64,000 nt of DNA from Candidatus Liptonbacteria bacterium. Lineage in GTDB: Bacteria; Patescibacteriota; Minisyncoccia; UBA6257; 2-01-FULL-56-20. Positions 1,046-53,305 of this stretch are shown piece by piece. The notes beneath the pieces are model-generated. The model searched no databases, was not told where the DNA came from, and saw only the letters and a list, made by a program, of their open reading frames with translations. Location of the stretch: positions 163 through 64,162 of the forward strand of contig JAHFLL010000001.1 of assembly GCA_023244895.1 (NCBI GenBank), given 5' to 3'. The translations under genes were made by a program, and so were the position numbers. Within the stretch, counting starts at the first letter, position 1, and every line of letters starts with the position of its first letter.

Positions 1046-2953
1046 CTACCAAGAGATGTATCTTTCTTCATTGTCTTCAAACTCTCCTTCCTGGTCTCTC
1101 TCCCCGCTCGCCGCCAGATTTTTATAAGCCATAAGCTCGGCGGGTATTTCTCCTAAGAAGCGGGAGGGCGCGTCATAGAAACTCAGGGATAGTTTGTGTT
1201 TGGCACGGGTCATAGCCACATACATCAGCCGGCGCTCTTCTTCTGTTTCTTCCGGCCCAATCGCCCGCGCGTGAGGCAGGAGTCCCTCGTTACAGCCTAC
1301 AATAAATACGGCATCAAACTCCAGCCCCTTGGCCATGTGTATGGTCATTAAATATACTGGGCGAGAGCTATCGGTCTTGTTTTGGGGTTTATCGGTAGAT
1401 TGGAGCAAGGTGACCTGCTCCAAGAATTCAGAAAGATTTTTAAATTCAGTAGCAAAACGTATCAGTTCCAGTATGTTCTCCTGTCTTTCTAGCGGGTTGG
1501 TAAGGTCTTGGACCATAAAGTTAATATAGTCAAAATGCTCTATGCAAAACTTGATGGTGTCCGCCGGGGAAAGTCCAGACTTGCTCCGCATGGCTTCGTC
1601 AAAAGCCGCCGTCCGGCGCTTGCCGAAATTCTTTTCCAAACGTTCCCGGCTGATACTATCCTGGGGATTAGCCAGAAAGCGTGCCGCGGCCAGTAGGTCT
1701 TTTATTTCCTTTCTCTCATAGAATTTTATTCCTCCAAAAACCAAGTAAGGAATATTGGCTCGGAGCAGTGCTTGTTCTATGGCGCGTGACTGAGCGTTGG
1801 TGCGGTAAAGAATCGCCACGCTCTCTTCTTGGCCGGATTCACCTTCCGTATTTTTACTTGCCCGTCCGGAGTCTGACGCGGGAGGGACTTTTAAATTTTG
1901 AATTTCATGGGTCACCCAGCCCGCCTCTTGTTCTTCGTCTAATGCTTCAATCAGTTTTATTTTTTCTCCATCCGGCAGAACCGCCCGCAGATTTTTTTGT
2001 TTTTGCTGGCGATTGTTTTTAATGAGCGACCCTGCGGCGTGCAAAATATTTCCCGCGGAGCGATAGTTCTGTTCCAAAATTACCGACTCCGCCATCGGCC
2101 AATCACGTTCAAAGTTCAAGAATATTTTAAAGTTGGATCCACGCCAACTATAAATTGTCTGTTGGTCGTCCCCCACCACGCTTAGGCGCGCGCCTTTACC
2201 CACTAAGTGCCGCAACATTTCGTACTGACTATTATTAATGTCCTGGTACTCATCCACTAATACGTGTGTGAATTGATTATGGTAATAATCTCTAGTCTCT
2301 GGATTAGTTATAAATAGACGGTTGGTTTGATAAATCAGGTCATCAAAATCAAAACCGTTATTGCGGGTTAGCTCTCGTTCGTATTCTTCAAAGACCAAAG
2401 GGACCGCCTTTTCCACGGCGCGGCTACTGGACTCTAATTCCGTCGGGTCAAGCTGGCCGTTTTTTATTTTAGAAATTTTTTCCGCGAACCAGGCCGGACC
2501 TTCTTTGTGAGGCAGATCCAAGCGCTTCAAAGTTTTCTTAAGTGCGTGAAAAGAATCGTTTTCGTCAAAAATCGCGAAGTCTGCCGTGCGCCCCACGCGG
2601 GCATGGTATCTGCGCAGTATGCGCGCTCCTAAAGAATGGAAGGTGCTGATGCGGGGACGCTCTTCCGGAGCTAGTTGACCCTCAAAATAGCCATGGACGC
2701 GCTCCAACATTTCGCGCGCGGCCTTGTTGGTAAAGGTTATGGCGCAGATATTCTCTCCGGGCACGCCCTGAGATATCAAATATACTATCCGGCTGGTCAA
2801 GGTTCGGGTTTTGCCCGTGCCCGCGCCTGCTACTATAAGGAGGGGCTTATCAATGGGGGCGTTTGCCGCCCGCGCCTGTTCCGGGTTGAGTCCGATGTTC
2901 TGAATTATATTTTGAGCTTGGCTTTGGTTGTGGTGCTTGAAGTTTTCGGTCAT
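1046..2953 (-). CDS. UvrD/PcrA/Rep-family ATP-dependent DNA helicase
   Basis: The 635-aa ORF has a Walker A motif GAGTGKTRTL and the N-terminal LNPEQ...A motif. A DEYQD Walker B/helicase motif and a C-terminal UvrD-like region are present. Confidence 0.85.
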   Translation of the reverse strand: MTENFKHHNQSQAQNIIQNIGLNPEQARAANAPIDKPLLIVAGAGTGKTRTLTSRIVYLISQGVPGENICAITFTNKAAREMLERVHGYFEGQLAPEERPRISTFHSLGARILRRYHARVGRTADFAIFDENDSFHALKKTLKRLDLPHKEGPAWFAEKISKIKNGQLDPTELESSSRAVEKAVPLVFEEYERELTRNNGFDFDDLIYQTNRLFITNPETRDYYHNQFTHVLVDEYQDINNSQYEMLRHLVGKGARLSVVGDDQQTIYSWRGSNFKIFLNFERDWPMAESVILEQNYRSAGNILHAAGSLIKNNRQQKQKNLRAVLPDGEKIKLIEALDEEQEAGWVTHEIQNLKVPPASDSGRASKNTEGESGQEESVAILYRTNAQSRAIEQALLRANIPYLVFGGIKFYERKEIKDLLAAARFLANPQDSISRERLEKNFGKRRTAAFDEAMRSKSGLSPADTIKFCIEHFDYINFMVQDLTNPLERQENILELIRFATEFKNLSEFLEQVTLLQSTDKPQNKTDSSRPVYLMTIHMAKGLEFDAVFIVGCNEGLLPHARAIGPEETEEERRLMYVAMTRAKHKLSLSFYDAPSRFLGEIPAELMAYKNLAASGERDQEGEFEDNEERYISW

Positions 2954-3010
2954 TTGTTATAGCTTTATACCATTAGTACGCTTTCGGCTCAAATTAAAAG
3001 GAACTTCCAA

Positions 3011-4003
3011 TTGCCCCTAGGAACGGCGATTTTTTTCGTTTTAGCCTTATTTCTATTAAATCTAGCAATTCCGGCCCTTCCCGCCCACTCCGGCGAGCGT
3101 GGAGTTATGGGTGGCCCGGCTGATTTTGGTGGGATACCCCCTGTTTTGTCCTCAAATGGAGAGAAAAACGGGTTTTTAGAGGGTCGTCCCGGAGTGGAGC
3201 CTGCCCCCGTCCCAGGCATAGATAAGGCCTTTATTGCCACGGAAAGCATGAAAAACCAGGGCGGTCTCTATGGTACCCCGGATCTAGTGAGCTACTCTTC
3301 GGGGGTGGGCGGAGTTATCTCGTATTCCGTAAAAAGCGGAGACACTCCGGCTACTATTGCCGCCTCTTACGGCTTAACCACTCAAACCCTTATCGCCACC
3401 AACCCTGCCCTAAAGAAGAAGTCTCTCAAGTCCGGTCAGCTTGTCCAAATATTGCCCGTTTCCGGGGTCTTGCATAAGGTTGCCGATGGCGAGACGTTAG
3501 TCTCTATCGCCCAACTATATAATGTATCTAAAGATAATGTGCGCGAATTTAACTCCGGGATTGAATTGGATAATCTATTGGCCGGCACCAGTTTGGTAAT
3601 CCCCGGCGCGTCTGTAACCAAATCTTCTCCCGAGGGCGAGGCGAATAATACCAGGGGATATTTTCGTTTACCGGCGGAAGGAGTGAACTGGGGCATTCTT
3701 CATAATAAAAACGCGGTAGACATCGCGAACGTTTGTGGCACACCAATTTTTGCCTCGGCGGAAGGATTAGTAGTTGCTGCCGATTCCGTTGGTTGGAATA
3801 ATGGTTACGGCTCTTTTGTGACAATTGAACATCCTATTGGAACCAAAACCAAATATGCTCACTTGGAAAGGGTGGGCGTGGAAGTCGGTAATTATGTTAA
3901 ACAGGGCGACGTAATTGGAGATATGGGCCAGACCGGAGATGCGACCGGTTGTCATATCCATTTTGAAGTAGAGGGAGCCAAGAATCCGTTTGTGAAGCAA
4001 TAG
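3011..4003 (+). CDS. LysM-repeat peptidoglycan DD-metalloendopeptidase (M23 family)
   Basis: There are two LysM-like repeats (GDTPATIAASYGLTT..., GETLVSIAQLYNVS...). The C-terminal M23 motifs (GTKTKYAHL, GDATGCHIHFE) and an N-terminal hydrophobic anchor are present. The annotated start at 3011 is TTG; an internal ATG start is possible. Confidence 0.7.
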   Translation: MPLGTAIFFVLALFLLNLAIPALPAHSGERGVMGGPADFGGIPPVLSSNGEKNGFLEGRPGVEPAPVPGIDKAFIATESMKNQGGLYGTPDLVSYSSGVGGVISYSVKSGDTPATIAASYGLTTQTLIATNPALKKKSLKSGQLVQILPVSGVLHKVADGETLVSIAQLYNVSKDNVREFNSGIELDNLLAGTSLVIPGASVTKSSPEGEANNTRGYFRLPAEGVNWGILHNKNAVDIANVCGTPIFASAEGLVVAADSVGWNNGYGSFVTIEHPIGTKTKYAHLERVGVEVGNYVKQGDVIGDMGQTGDATGCHIHFEVEGAKNPFVKQ

Positions 4004-4063: not shown

Positions 4064-5281
4064 TTAGGGTAGGTTGAAGCTCTTTAGAATCGCGTCGCTT
4101 GCAACCGAAAAAGATTCAGTCCTGTTTTGCTGAGAGTTGTTACTGGAATACGAAGCTACTAGACCCACGATGTATCCCCTCCAGAAAAGAGGCGAACCGG
4201 AACGTCCGCGATATATTTCCATATTGGTCGCGATAACGAGTGGTGTGCTCGCATAGTAAACGTCTCCCACATAAACCTCCTTAACGTTTCCTAAGCTACC
4301 CGAGAGGTACATAGTGGAGAAAGAATCGTTGCGCGCCGCGCCAATATCTCCCGGGAAGCCAAAGGTAATAACCTGCTGGCCGGGTGGCATAACTCCGTTG
4401 ATGGGAATAATTTTCGCGTATGGGAACGAGGCGGGCACGCTACTGTATCCGAAGGTAGGACCATCCGCCGAGACACCGTTTATTTTGAGCAGAGCGAAGT
4501 CCGCGTATTGTTTTTCCAGGTCCGACAATCCCACGCTGAGAGAAATTTTTTCCACGCTCGCGGTGTAGGGCAAGACCGTAACCATCACCAAGGGATTAAC
4601 CGCGCGTATCTCATCCGGCGTAGGCAGGGTGGTGTTGGGCGGTACCACGCCTACCAGGCACTGTTTCAGGGAATAGGTAAAATTTCCGGACACATTACTT
4701 CCGTCTATGATCGTGCTTTGTATTCCACCCTCTTTTTTAACAACGTGCCGATTGGTTAATATTTTGCCATCCGCGGAAACAATCACGCCCGAGCCCTTGG
4801 ATTCCACCTCTCCTTGCGCGATAAGTTTGTCCGAAACCTGGTCCTTAATTGTGAGATCGAATTTGCATAATAACCCAACCACAGTTTGATGATTAATGGC
4901 AATTTCGGGAGGTAGTTTGGGAGTAGCATTCTCGGGAGTGCTGGTAGGGCTCACCAATTTATTTTCCGGTAAAACGGGAACCTCTATTTTCTCCGGGACA
5001 ACTATTTTGGGCGGGGCTTGTTTGGCGGTAGTTGTAGCGGGAATATTATTTACGGGGGCGCTAGGTGTGCTAGTGGTAGTGCTGGTGAAAATAGGTTTTT
5101 CCACCTCGCTTCCCCTCTCCTCTTCCGTGGTTGTACTCGCGTTGTTTTGTGCGACCACTTCAGTTTGTTGCGCGGGCGCACTCTCAATTGGGATCTTTTT
5201 CTGAATTATTAAAACATAGCCCAACGCGACCACAATTGCGCCAGCTAGTAGAAAAGAAATTATTTTTTCCCAGATAAGCAT
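4064..5281 (-). CDS. membrane-anchored trypsin-like (S1/HtrA-like) serine protease
   Basis: The protein has an N-terminal TM helix, a Thr/Ser/Pro-rich linker, GSGVIVSADGKILTNRHVV (His region) and GRSGSPLF (Ser nucleophile region). Confidence 0.7.
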   Translation of the reverse strand: MLIWEKIISFLLAGAIVVALGYVLIIQKKIPIESAPAQQTEVVAQNNASTTTEEERGSEVEKPIFTSTTTSTPSAPVNNIPATTTAKQAPPKIVVPEKIEVPVLPENKLVSPTSTPENATPKLPPEIAINHQTVVGLLCKFDLTIKDQVSDKLIAQGEVESKGSGVIVSADGKILTNRHVVKKEGGIQSTIIDGSNVSGNFTYSLKQCLVGVVPPNTTLPTPDEIRAVNPLVMVTVLPYTASVEKISLSVGLSDLEKQYADFALLKINGVSADGPTFGYSSVPASFPYAKIIPINGVMPPGQQVITFGFPGDIGAARNDSFSTMYLSGSLGNVKEVYVGDVYYASTPLVIATNMEIYRGRSGSPLFWRGYIVGLVASYSSNNSQQNRTESFSVASDAILKSFNLP

Positions 5282-26683: not shown

Positions 26684-26714
26684 AACATTAATAATAGCAC
26701 GGCGGTAATATAAA

Positions 26715-26779
26715 AATGCTTCTATGGCAGACGGGGATTAGGGGTCATTTTCGCTCTGCGGCCCGCGGTTCGACTCCCC
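26715..26779 (-). other. truncated copy (C) of tRNA-flanking conserved element
   Basis: On the minus strand it reads GGGGAGTCGAACC, the reverse complement of the tRNA-Gly T-loop and stem. The conserved GCGGGCCGCA follows, then a diverged copy of the tRNA-Gly 3' end (gacccctaatccccgtctgcca). Confidence 0.45.
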
Positions 26780-26904: not shown

Positions 26905-27111
26905 CTGTCCTGAGTTTATCGAAGGGCCTTCGCTGAACCTGCCTGCCGGCAGGCAGGGCTTCGGCGCTTATCCTCCCCAAGAGGAGATAAACCCACTACA
27001 ATTCCATAGGCGAATTGAGCACTCCCATTCTACATTCTAGCCTCTAAATTCTCAAGTTTATTATGCTTGCGCAAAAGGCGGAAATGAGATAAAACTATCA
27101 GAACAATAAGC

Positions 27112-27759: not shown

Positions 27760-27833
27760 GCGCATGTAGCTCAATTGGTTAGAGCCCCAAGCTTATACCT
27801 TGGTGGTTCCAGGTTCGAGTCCTGGCATGCGCA
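27760..27833 (+). tRNA. tRNA-Ile (anticodon UAU)
   Basis: The acceptor stem is GCGCATG/CATGCGC, the D-stem GCTC/GAGC and the anticodon stem CCAAG/CTTGG. The anticodon loop CTTATAC gives anticodon TAT, and the T-arm is CCAGG-TTCGAGT-CCTGG. No CCA is encoded. Confidence 0.85.
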
Positions 27834-27835
27834 CA

Positions 27836-27879
27836 AAAAACAGAATGTGATATTCTTTACGAGTATCACGTTCTGTTTT
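27836..27879 (+). terminator. bidirectional rho-independent terminator
   Basis: aaaacagaatgtgata ttctttacgag tatcacgttctgtttt has an A-tract on one side and a T-tract on the other. Confidence 0.7.
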
Positions 27880-27884
27880 ATATG

Positions 27885-27975
27885 GTAGGACTCGAACCGC
27901 GGGCCGCAGGCTCCGAAGAGGAGCCGAAGGTTTCGAGCATAGTAATGCGAGAGGCGAGTCCTGGCATGCGCACCA
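27885..27975 (+). other. conserved tRNA-flanking structured element, copy A (tRNA-Ile associated)
   Basis: It begins GGTAGGACTCGAACC, the reverse complement of the tRNA-Ile T-arm. It ends GAGTCCTGGCATGCGCACCA, a 20-nt direct copy of the tRNA-Ile 3' end. The core is shared with copy B and contains two covarying hairpins. Confidence 0.6.
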
Positions 27976-27983
27976 AGTATTTT

Positions 27984-28457
27984 ATGGATAAATCCATAAT
28001 CCTTAAGAAATTTATAGAAGAACTGCGGGCCAGAAAGGACGAACTGGAACGTTCATATTTGGAGCACAAAGAAGAGGCGAAGAACGCTCCTTCCGCCATG
28101 CAGTCCGCGTCGGATATGTCGCGCCATCAGGCCAACACCATGGCGGAAAATGTGCGTGCGGAAATAGATGTTTTGGAAAAGGCGATAGACTTTCTTTTGA
28201 AACCGGAATCCCATCCCAAAGAAGGGGGCGCCCTAGGTTACGGAGACCTATTTATAGTTGAATACAATAGCGGGAAGAAGGGATATCTAATTGTGCCGAA
28301 GGGCGCGGGCGGAAGAGAGGTAAAAGGCCTTGGCATAGACCTATTTTCAATTTCGCCAAATTCCCCGATAGGAGAGAAACTGATCCGCGCGAAAATAGGG
28401 GAGAACGTTAAGCTCCACCCCAACGAACCAGAAACGAAGGTGGTGAATATTCTTTAG
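27984..28457 (+). CDS. GreA/GreB-family-like transcript cleavage factor (C-terminal FKBP-like domain)
   Basis: The C-terminal ...LIVPKGAGGREVKGLGIDLFSISPNSPIGEKLIRAKIGENVKL resembles the GreA C-terminal domain, and the N-terminal region is helical. I chose the ATG at 27984. Confidence 0.55.
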   Translation: MDKSIILKKFIEELRARKDELERSYLEHKEEAKNAPSAMQSASDMSRHQANTMAENVRAEIDVLEKAIDFLLKPESHPKEGGALGYGDLFIVEYNSGKKGYLIVPKGAGGREVKGLGIDLFSISPNSPIGEKLIRAKIGENVKLHPNEPETKVVNIL

Positions 28458-36173: not shown

Positions 36174-36569
36174 ATGAGGCTTATTTCCATATCATTTTTG
36201 CTCTGTTTTTTTGCTCTGGCGGTTTTGGGTTTCGTGGGCGCGTCCCAAGCCATGAACTATAATGTTACCTGCGTAGGTGACGCGGCCCACGGTGCGGCTT
36301 GCCCGGGAGACGTAGCCCCGGGAGCCCTCGCGGAGACCATCCACCATCTTTCTGGGTTAAAATTATTCTCTCTCGCAATTTCTAGCTCTGTGTTTTTATT
36401 GTTATCCGCCATTTATCTACTACTTACAGTTTTCCCAATGCCGATCTCGCAGGGGACGAGCGGGTTCGTATCATCTCTGAATTATTGGAATATAAATCTT
36501 CGCCCCGGGGCGGTCCGTAGACGCAGTTGGCTGACACTTCTAGAGAAGCGCGACCCCTACAATATATAG
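36174..36569 (+). CDS. small hypothetical membrane/secreted protein
   Basis: The 131-aa ORF has an N-terminal signal/TM helix and a second TM helix. A TATAAT at about 36137 lies upstream. Confidence 0.45.
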   Translation: MRLISISFLLCFFALAVLGFVGASQAMNYNVTCVGDAAHGAACPGDVAPGALAETIHHLSGLKLFSLAISSSVFLLLSAIYLLLTVFPMPISQGTSGFVSSLNYWNINLRPGAVRRRSWLTLLEKRDPYNI

Positions 36570-53008: not shown

Positions 53009-53080
53009 GCCCTCGTAGCTTAATGGATAAAGCAGGGCTCTTCTAAGGCCTTGATGGGGGTTCGATTCCCTCCGGGGGCA
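53009..53080 (+). tRNA. tRNA-Arg (anticodon UCU)
   Basis: The acceptor stem GCCCTCG/CGGGGGC has one G-U pair. The anticodon loop CTTCTAA gives anticodon TCT, and the T-arm is GGGGG-TTCGATT-CCCTC. Confidence 0.8.
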
Positions 53081-53126
53081 CATAGGAAAGAAAGCATCTA
53101 AGCAGGACGTTTTGTTTCATTTTAAA

Positions 53127-53216
53127 GCCGGAATCGAACCGCGGGCCGCAACTCGCGAAGAGCGAGTGAAGGTCTCGAGTTTAGTAAAACGAGAGGCGAT
53201 TCCCTCCGGGGGCACA
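53127..53216 (+). other. conserved tRNA-flanking structured element, copy B (tRNA-Arg associated)
   Basis: It begins GGAATCGAACC, the reverse complement of the tRNA-Arg T-loop region, and ends CGATTCCCTCCGGGGGCACA, a 20-nt direct copy of the tRNA-Arg 3' end. The core matches copy A with compensatory hairpin changes. Confidence 0.6.
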
Positions 53217-53305
53217 ATAAAAATCGCCACGATACGGGAACTTTATTTCCCGGTATTTTAGGCGTGCTATAATTGGACGCAGAAGGTCTTTAAAATAATA
53301 TTTTA

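Follow-up and report, generated by a model that had tools for sequence, protein, structure and literature searches.

A direct repeat of a tRNA 3′ end together with a restored tRNA gene is the classical signature of integration into tRNA genes. Islands at tRNA and tmRNA genes, like the integrase-less cis-mobilizable elements (CIMEs), sit in the 3′ part of the gene from the T-loop on; the gene is restored by the insert, the displaced 3′ fragment remains as a direct repeat, relatives differ in presence or absence, and tandem accretion occurs. The same traits are found in a small element in a window of 64,000 nucleotides from a Candidatus Liptonbacteria genome (the whole stretch that was analysed; contig JAHFLL010000001.1, positions 163 to 64,162 of the forward strand), one copy of which, copy A, directly follows the gene for tRNA-Ile(tat). 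Unlike islands and CIMEs, the inserts are only ~110-140 bp long, usually carry no cargo and contain no integrase or other recombinase gene in any copy; each also contains the target in inverted form and a conserved 60-nt core that shows covariation of the RNA type and forms an RNA-like junction closed by the displaced tRNA fragment, and one nearly invariant core is found at no fewer than 20 tRNA species. As a well-supported structure, copy A belongs to an undescribed, Patescibacteria-wide family of 74-nt RNA-like modules that form a three-way junction within small inserts at tRNA and tmRNA 3′ ends. Our preferred reading, to which we assign a probability of about 0.45, sees in copy A one of a set of miniature, non-autonomous insertional cassettes lodged at tRNA and tmRNA 3′ ends, the module being either recognised or guide-like.

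The layout of the family can be followed from the tRNA gene outwards. Positions 1-55 of the tRNA are followed by a first repeat of positions 56-74, which completes the tRNA, by a spacer that is usually a terminator-like hairpin, and by an arm, X′, that is an inverted copy of approximately positions 65-52. Then come the conserved 60-nt core, a second repeat of positions 56-74, and finally the downstream flank native to the gene. Pairing of the second repeat with X′ closes the 74-nt three-way junction. In copy A all parts lie on the + strand. The intact tRNA-Ile(tat) gene is placed at 27760-27833 by Rfam (72.4 bits) and at 27760-27834 by ARAGORN, so that the tRNA gene recognised in the original prediction at 27760-27833 is real; its last 19 nt, C56 to C74 (CGAGTCCTGGCATGCGCAC, 27816-27834), are the first copy of the direct repeat. 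The spacer (27835-27879), which the CCA statistics given below place inside the insert, is an AT-rich hairpin, AAAAAACAGAATGTGATA...TATCACGTTCTGTTTT, flanked by an A-run and a T-run. It had been read as a bidirectional terminator at 27836-27879; the hairpin is indeed there, and its role as a terminator is plausible only, since the 11-nt loop and AT-rich stem leave it uncalled by a simple terminator scan. The inverted arm X′, GGTAGGACTCGAACC, occupies 27884-27898, is the reverse complement of the T-loop region of tRNA-Ile (GGTTCGAGTCCT, positions 52-63), and provides the 5′ strand of helix P1. The predicted complementarity to the T-arm thus holds, with its start at 27884 instead of 27885.

The 74-nt core of copy A spans 27888-27961 (covariance-model match of 100.4 bits), and here the RNAalifold consensus is also the minimum-free-energy fold. 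P1 pairs 27888-27894 with 27955-27961 and continues, after an AA bulge, with CC/GG; P2 pairs 27902-27905 with 27929-27932. The hairpin P3 (27909-27925) reads GGCUCC GAAGA GGAGCC, a 6-bp stem with a GAAGA pentaloop, and the hairpin P4 (27933-27952) consists of UC/GA, a tandem G.A/A.G, a 4-bp stem and an AGYA loop. The tail (27955-27975), which supplies the 3′ strand of P1, is made of the second repeat copy (27955-27973), identical over 19 nt to 27816-27834 in the tRNA, and a following CA. The closing helix of copy A is therefore formed between an inverted copy of the T-loop region and a 19-nt direct copy of the tRNA. The added CA completes a CCA in the tail, whereas the gene itself continues with AA; of the 20-nt direct copy running into CCA that was first described, the copy and the CCA stand, and the exact length is 19 nt. 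The start codon of a GreA-like gene follows at 27984, 8 nt past the tail.

Two further copies are present in the window. Copy B (core 53130-53203, tail 53197-53216, + strand, 99.2 bits) follows tRNA-Arg(tct) at 53009-53080; its tail is a 20-nt repeat of 53063-53082, and a terminator lies 3′ of it at 53235-53252. As stated originally, the core of copy A is nearly identical to that of copy B, with compensatory changes in both hairpins. Copy C (26696-26779, − strand) follows tRNA-Gly(tcc) at 26904-26831 and is decayed: only GGGGAGTCGAACCGCGGGCCGCA (26779-26757), the first 23 nt of the core, is intact, and the remainder is degenerate. The element thus stands at 3 of the 7 tRNA genes in the window, and at 1 of 8 in one of the related loci that were compared with it (L025; such loci carry L-numbers throughout). 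Chance is excluded, because a 32-nt pattern of the 3′ half occurs twice in the window against 0.00 expected; a 16-nt 5′ pattern occurs four times against 0.57. One match to the 5′ pattern, at 36281-36296, was dismissed as a chance occurrence, as it has 3 mismatches, lies inside an open reading frame (ORF) and lacks the rest of the element.

Searching relatives with a covariance model, a check foreseen in the original prediction, returned many more copies. A pattern that spans the core hit 32 loci in a one-genome-per-species collection, 32/32 of them in metagenome-assembled genomes (MAGs) of Patescibacteria, with labels including Saccharibacteria, Parcubacteria, Kaiser-, Nomura- and Harrisonbacteria, Paceibacterota and Spechtbacterales. 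The 3′-half pattern hit 103 metagenome stretches, part of these being chance matches in coding DNA. The covariance model, made from 33 copies, recovered 36 and then 83 matches, and in the related loci it gives ~115 matches of 57-102 bits, some sequences counting as more than one locus; about 90 copies are known besides those of the window. The hosts are genes for tRNA-Gln (15 copies), Tyr (8), Asp, Trp, Ser, Arg, Glu, Val, Lys, Ile, Gly and Met, one tmRNA, and tRNAs with group I introns, at least 20 tRNA species in all. Only some tRNA genes of a genome carry the element, and several copies per genome occur at different tRNAs. That no element of such architecture has been described, as originally supposed, was borne out. 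Rfam 15 gave no match on copy A or on a long form, either in gathering scans or at E ≤ 10, and thus no self-cleaving ribozyme, riboswitch or small RNA known to it, the only matches nearby being to tRNA and group I introns. The element has no matches in viral contigs (IMG/VR), phages (INPHARED) or plasmids (PLSDB), and the searchable literature, queried by sequence string and keywords, holds no description of it. Two copies deserve separate mention for the gene that precedes them: at L108 ~2700-2960 (+) and L022 ~3460-3560 (−), the upstream RNA gene has an odd T-loop-like GTTCTAAAC(A/G)(C/T)ATCC instead of GGTTCGANTCC and receives no tRNA call from ARAGORN.

The fold is shared by the family. 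The RNAalifold consensus and single-sequence minimum-free-energy folds concur on the 74-nt three-way junction (z = -3.4). P1 is GGANUCG/CGANUCC, where N covaries and equals T-loop position 59 of the adjacent tRNA; it is followed by the AA bulge, CC/GG, P2 (GGCC/GGUY) and an invariant internal loop GCA/GAA. The 6-bp hairpin P3 shows covariation at all pairs, and P4 has an invariant tandem G.A/A.G, a 4-bp stem whose three inner pairs covary, and the AGYA loop. Among 75 distinct copies, pairing is kept in 96.7% of cells; double-change cells number 290 versus 82±8 in shuffles, with 0/500 shuffles reaching 290, and in controls with slid partners pairing falls to 31-47%. The hairpin covariation, taken in the original prediction as the mark of a selected secondary structure, thus persists with 75 copies aligned. 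The P3 loop GAAGA has the variants GACGA, GAUGA and GAGGA, and one sub-class has true GNRA tetraloops in its stead, combined with a tandem G.A in the stem. Expansion segments are found at two fixed sites, inside P4 (L022, L025) and between GCGGG and CCGCA in long forms. The GAAGA loop is the pentaloop of lambda nutL boxB. P3 resembles boxB in its short G+C-rich stem with GAAGA, replaceable by GNRA tetraloops as for a GNRA-like fold; the likeness is that of a single hairpin, with no boxA, no N-like protein and another context, and is a lead and not a finding.

The structure is under selection on the tRNA-sense strand. G16.U44 is invariant, the partner of G15 is U in 51 copies and C in 24, the tandem G.A is invariant and would read C.U on the opposite strand, and P3 and P4 together hold 17 G.U versus 7 A.C. 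This agrees with an earlier hint, drawn from one T·G pair, at an RNA on the tRNA strand, and it disfavours the suggestion of an antisense RNA directed at the tRNA 3′ end. Because the motifs are RNA-type (GNRA and GAAGA loops, tandem G.A), a transcript is probably favoured over folded single-stranded DNA, two states that computation does not separate. A dedicated promoter was rejected: TANNNT is weakly enriched at -11 to -19 of the copies, many copies have no such box, and a sigma-70 promoter scan found nothing at copy A. The length of 74 nt, a closing helix of 7 bp and a hairpin of 17 nt also suggested a minus-strand gene for a tRNA or tRNA-like RNA; this was ruled out, as a T-arm is missing, the putative D-arm contains U.C mismatches, and the G.U pairs would turn into A.C.

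These properties lead to the chief alternative, which we regard as doubtful but worth weighing. The element could be a family of host small-RNA genes, a functional junction RNA acting in trans or in cis (for example protein-binding, a processing module, or a leader), born by local duplication of a tRNA 3′ end, maintained by purifying selection and homogenised by gene conversion, with mobility being incidental. The RNA-type motifs, the strong covariation and the tolerance of expansion segments at fixed positions are in line with it, as are the covariance-model scores, which in the first 283 kb searched are bimodal (57-102 bits or nothing), and the terminator found 3′ of the tail in copy B and several other copies. 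A related proposal, a small RNA whose 3′ tail mimics the tRNA 3′ end, is possible in itself and weakened by the free decay of the distal tail while the core stays intact. A host gene, however, would give no reason for inverted and direct copies of each neighbour's T-arm; it fits poorly with several copies per genome at different tRNAs, with the decay of copy C and with the lack of a -10 box upstream of many copies, and relatives with 63-93% identity in the flanking protein lack the element at the same tRNA.

The flanks of the core bear on how the element arose. The direct repeat between tRNA and tail has a mode of 19-21 nt and extends from C56 as far as positions 74-76, ending where the tRNA ends; it flanks the insert in most copies, and the tRNA genes are intact. 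The tail reads GG-CGANUCC, a T-arm without T54 and T55. P1 including X′ is 6-20 bp long, with a mode of 10-12 bp (positions 56-65), and its length shows no correlation with repeat length across copies. An encoded CCA after the first repeat is found in 0/59 element-bearing tRNA genes versus 14/63 genes without the element in the same loci (p = 6e-5). Among 29 good tails, 4 have CCA, another 4 have CCT, and 25 are without CCA. Because CCA is lacking from the interrupted genes while some tails carry it, the spacer hairpin belongs to the insert and the sequence downstream of the tail is the native tRNA flank. In agreement with this, tails adjoin the next gene as a native tRNA end would: in L040, which has no element at tRNA-Ile, the GreA-like gene starts with GTG 3 nt after the tRNA-Ile 3′ end (1047-1053), to be compared with the 8 nt past the tail CCA in the window, and in L017 a tRNA-Thr begins 5 nt after the tail. 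The spacing in L040 suggests, as a separate matter, an almost leaderless mRNA made by tRNA 3′ processing. A long target-site duplication, comprising the tRNA 3′ end and the terminator, was also considered and rejected, since similarity past ~20 nt is seen only in L052, L018, L045 and partly L028, the rest having z near 0.

Template switching onto a tRNA 3′ end, the logic of the Mauriceville retroplasmid, offers another route to such tails. A reverse transcriptase encoded elsewhere would copy the core, switch template to the tRNA 3′ end, and the resulting cDNA would recombine at the tRNA gene. The tRNA-derived segments do start near positions 56-59 and finish at the tRNA 3′ end, and four tails (window copy A, L028b, L043 and L042) have CCA where the gene has none. 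We nevertheless consider this highly improbable. The rarity of CCA and the 1-14 genomic trailer bases that tails often have in common with the gene (L007, L028a) mark the tails as DNA-level copies, not cDNA of mature tRNA, and a tail copied from mature tRNA is rejected on these grounds, the CCA of copy A being no evidence for it. No reverse transcriptase is encoded nearby, among ORFs within 4 kb of the element at 111 loci, the survey to which all statements on linked genes below refer. Moreover, group II introns are reported to be absent in Patescibacteria (PMC13011429).

Comparison of relatives, with orthologous loci located via a flanking 198-aa protein, shows gain, decay and duplication. 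At tRNA-Ile the element is missing in relatives whose flanking protein is 93% (L035-37), 81% (L038) or 63% (L040) identical. At tRNA-Gly, L038 has an intact element (1458-1533, 93 bits) exactly at the position of the decayed copy C of the window. In L052 (946-1153, −), two full units of repeat, terminator, X′ and core stand in tandem after tRNA-Tyr and differ by a few bases, a case of tandem accretion that may reflect either unequal crossing-over between repeats or repeated insertion into a regenerated site. Short unitigs of the same strain break off within the element, as assemblies do at repeats. Cores are alike within a genome rather than by tRNA type; for example, one Nomurabacteria MAG has identical cores at tRNA-Trp and tRNA-Tyr with unrelated spacers and arms. 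Fixed architecture, restored gene, displaced 3′ fragment, and gain, decay and duplication together form a footprint of tRNA-gene integration. The comparison with strains that lack the insertion, as proposed originally, gave presence and absence at tRNA-Ile and an intact versus a decayed copy at tRNA-Gly; an empty site that can be aligned through its flanks in a close relative was not among the loci compared, and mobility accordingly rests on presence and absence between species-level relatives. For copy B, the corresponding relatives show rearrangement (L145), a fossil tail without tRNA-Arg (L147) or other repeats (L148). The fossil tail in L147, CTCTCCGGGGGCAC at 395-415, is followed by the conserved bestrophin-like downstream flank and preceded by no tRNA-Arg or recognisable core.

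The 3′ side of tRNA-Ile is an insertion hot spot. A different insert of ~630 nt with a 190-aa ORF lies there in L035 (995-1627; also in L036 and L037), at the place taken by the element in the window. At the same locus, an 87-aa GIY-YIG nuclease-family gene stands between the 198-aa gene and tRNA-Ile in L038 (2608-2871) and L039 (1035-1298) and is absent there in the window and in L035.

Linked machinery was sought by clustering the neighbouring ORFs. No recurrent protein family and no mobile-element family emerged; the largest cluster covers 7/111 loci and is housekeeping, and copies A, B and C are likewise surrounded by housekeeping genes (MFS transporter, DUF2585, GreA-like, DHFR, YdjM, bestrophin-like and S1). 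An HNH gene (L022) and a GIY-YIG gene (L038) were set aside as linked proteins, being single cases that are plausibly related to introns or homing. Could the inserts then be scars of larger integrated elements, such as a prophage, an integrative and conjugative element or an island, with the core as the attR-proximal arm left after internal deletion? The direct repeat of the tRNA 3′ end with the gene restored is just what classical integration leaves, and in L054 a 930-nt ORF lies between tRNA-Tyr and the core. We find this improbable, as nearly all of the ~90 copies lie within ~100 nt of a tRNA, no full-length element or nearby integrase was found, and arm-type protein-binding DNA would not give RNA-like compensatory covariation. 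The zero matches in IMG/VR, INPHARED and PLSDB also led us to reject a phage, plasmid or viral origin, and the core matches no phage arm in them, whereas such a match had been named as fatal to the idea of a distinct element.

Of the three possibilities raised in the original prediction, a miniature integrative element that uses tRNA 3′ ends as att sites fits best, given the 19-21-nt repeat, the presence and absence in relatives, and the decayed and tandem copies. It is not a classical integrase/att system, in view of the missing recombinase at the 111 loci and the identical cores with different arms: a simple site-specific integrase model does not explain how both arms are tRNA-specific while cores can be identical across tRNAs. 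Nor does the element agree with miniature inverted-repeat transposable elements, which have conserved terminal inverted repeats and a short target-site duplication of fixed length; its inverted arms vary with the target tRNA, and in place of a simple duplication the target flanks it once inverted and once direct. Retroelements that are primed by or capture tRNAs are likewise a poor match, with CCA in 4/29 good tails, genomic trailer bases and no reverse transcriptase nearby.

An integron cassette with its attC site offers a formal parallel, with the order core site, cargo, inverse core site, structured centre and core site, an imperfect inverted repeat with two bulged bases (AA), and a strand-specific structure. 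As regards a single-strand fold of the attC type, P1 has the AA bulge, and the G.U and G.A pairs of the module favour the + strand, RNA and single-stranded DNA being computationally inseparable here. Conservation is distributed in the opposite way to attC, with a constant centre and arms that vary by target; RYYYAAC/GTTRRRY boxes are missing, the element having NTCGAAC and G--CGAN, and its ends read NTCGAACC and GG-CGANTCC. There is no nearby integrase, IntI gene, attI site or array, and the GNRA-type loops point to RNA.

Mobile elements with guide RNAs include the IS110 bridge RNA or seekRNA, TnpB omega/reRNA, and the homing crRNA of type V-K CRISPR-associated transposons (CAST), which targets tRNA genes. 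These systems share with the element a conserved structured scaffold at the element end, short flanking segments that match the target on both strands and tRNA genes as safe-harbour targets. The IS110 bridge RNA is encoded beside a DEDD/Piv-type recombinase and carries its target and donor guides in two internal loops. Unlike them, the element has no adjacent recombinase, transposase or nuclease gene and no recurring adjacent ORF family, and its two target-matching segments pair with each other in the helix P1, the internal loops being invariant, instead of lying in internal loops. The hairpin stems were rejected as target guides, as they are identical at different tRNAs of one genome.

The X′ arm also invites comparison with introns. 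The element might be intron-like or ribozyme-like, placed at T-loop 55/56, with X′ resembling an internal guide sequence (GGUU with AACC, CGANUCC with GGANUCG) and the core a small catalytic or processing RNA whose own copy of the 3′ exon makes splicing dispensable. X′ does run, 5′ to 3′, from the complement of the beginning of the 3′ exon to that of the last bases of the 5′ exon, as the internal guide sequence of group I introns does; long-form cores have a 50-nt module in common with a tRNA group I intron; and Patescibacterial tRNA genes are rich in group I introns (PMC13011429), a paper that concerns position 35/36 only. We judge this quite improbable: neither group I (RF00028) nor a self-cleaving ribozyme is matched in Rfam at E ≤ 10, while true introns in the neighbourhood score 67-71 bits, the core is too small for the group I helices P3-P9, the 5′ junction is U-A where group I would have G.U, and the upstream tRNA is already complete and followed by a hairpin.

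Those neighbouring introns are of interest in themselves. tRNA genes with group I introns, missed by ARAGORN, occur at L006 7663-7941 (−), L007 691-946 (−), L018 4426-4660 (−) and in L141; in L006, L007 and L141 the intron-bearing tRNA is the one followed by the element, and in L018 the intron is in another tRNA gene ~2 kb away. The HNH endonuclease ORF at L022 4131-4475 (−) may belong to a group I intron. The common 50-nt module is a second tiny element, a ~50-nt hairpin CCTGTTTT...AAAACAGCAGTCCTTTA bounded by a 6-nt direct repeat GGGCYC. It is found at L044 1560-1618 (+), L144 9336-9402 (+), L043 ~2965-3030 (−), L018 ~4640-4700 (−) and ~3513-3580 (−), and L024 ~1100-1160 (−), its four settings being long-form cores (between GCGGG and CCGCA), a tRNA group I intron, a lone intergenic site and, in one element, the tail. 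It has the appearance of a separate miniature insertion with structured-RNA genes as its landing sites. Finally, a perfect 20-nt palindrome, CCTGCCTGCCGGCAGGCAGG, lies upstream of tRNA-Gly in the window (26938-26957) and is conserved in relatives (L040 89-108), against 0.00 expected by chance. It recurs directly 3′ of the element tail in L022 (3337-3356), with variants in L097, L148 and L150, and is a REP-like repeat family of these genomes.

Several observations weigh against the insertional cassette. First, none of the copies has a linked gene for a recombinase, reverse transcriptase or transposase. Second, the arms (X′ of 10-12 nt, tail of 19 nt) are tRNA-specific while cores are identical across tRNAs. 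Third, recurrence after tRNA genes with termini specific to the neighbour, as originally described, has two exceptions: the tails in L018 and L056 equal a functional tRNA allele of another genome and not the resident one, which complicates the reading of the tail as the native end and points to recombination that may have occurred within or beside the core. Fourth, the spacers of L001 and L012 are homologous, their X′ arms have decayed in a similar way and both have a TATAGT box 14 nt upstream, yet their cores stay intact through compensatory changes while the arms decay; this calls for either purifying selection acting in place or conversion by other copies, and a host-useful RNA gene accounts for it no less well than selfish DNA. 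Fifth, neither an excised form nor an empty site whose flanks align with those of a filled site in a close relative was seen. Lastly, many copies have no evident promoter, so that transcription is predicted at most.

With these points in mind, the cassette can be pictured as follows. The unit would have entered by insertion or recombination within positions 56-74, in the way of tRNA-gene islands. Its junction module, probably a transcript and less probably a folded DNA single strand, would serve as a cis element or guide-like RNA through which host recombination, or machinery whose genes lie elsewhere, could act on the near-universal T-loop sequence GGTTCGANTCC. Arms that match each tRNA around identical cores could result from re-insertion with re-templating of the arms or from gene conversion of the 60-nt core, and either re-insertion or gene conversion may keep the cores of one genome alike. 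A bolder form of the proposal, which we offer tentatively and hold to be rather unlikely, is that the 74-nt module is the RNA or folded-strand part of an insertion system programmed by base pairing and without an integrase gene in cis, one that recognises the universal T-loop sequence of tRNA and tmRNA genes, rebuilds both arms for each target, and supplies the 3′ end and terminator. Such a system would be a new class of RNA-structured mobile elements specific to the candidate phyla radiation (CPR).

The tiny genomes of CPR/Patescibacteria have scant non-coding DNA and still hold several copies of the element, with a core conserved almost base for base across labels as distant as Saccharibacteria and Parcubacteria. 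If the mobile cassette is true, tRNA genes are invaded by an element that carries no recombinase, which could point to RNA-structured or RNA-guided recombination that would be useful as a tool. Should the element instead be a host RNA, it would be a new and widespread class of structured RNA linked to tRNA genes, in a lineage about whose RNA biology little is known. In both cases, the element breaks assemblies and leaves duplicated tRNA 3′ ends, its 60-nt patches of homology may drive the exchange of tRNA alleles, and the family deserves an Rfam entry.

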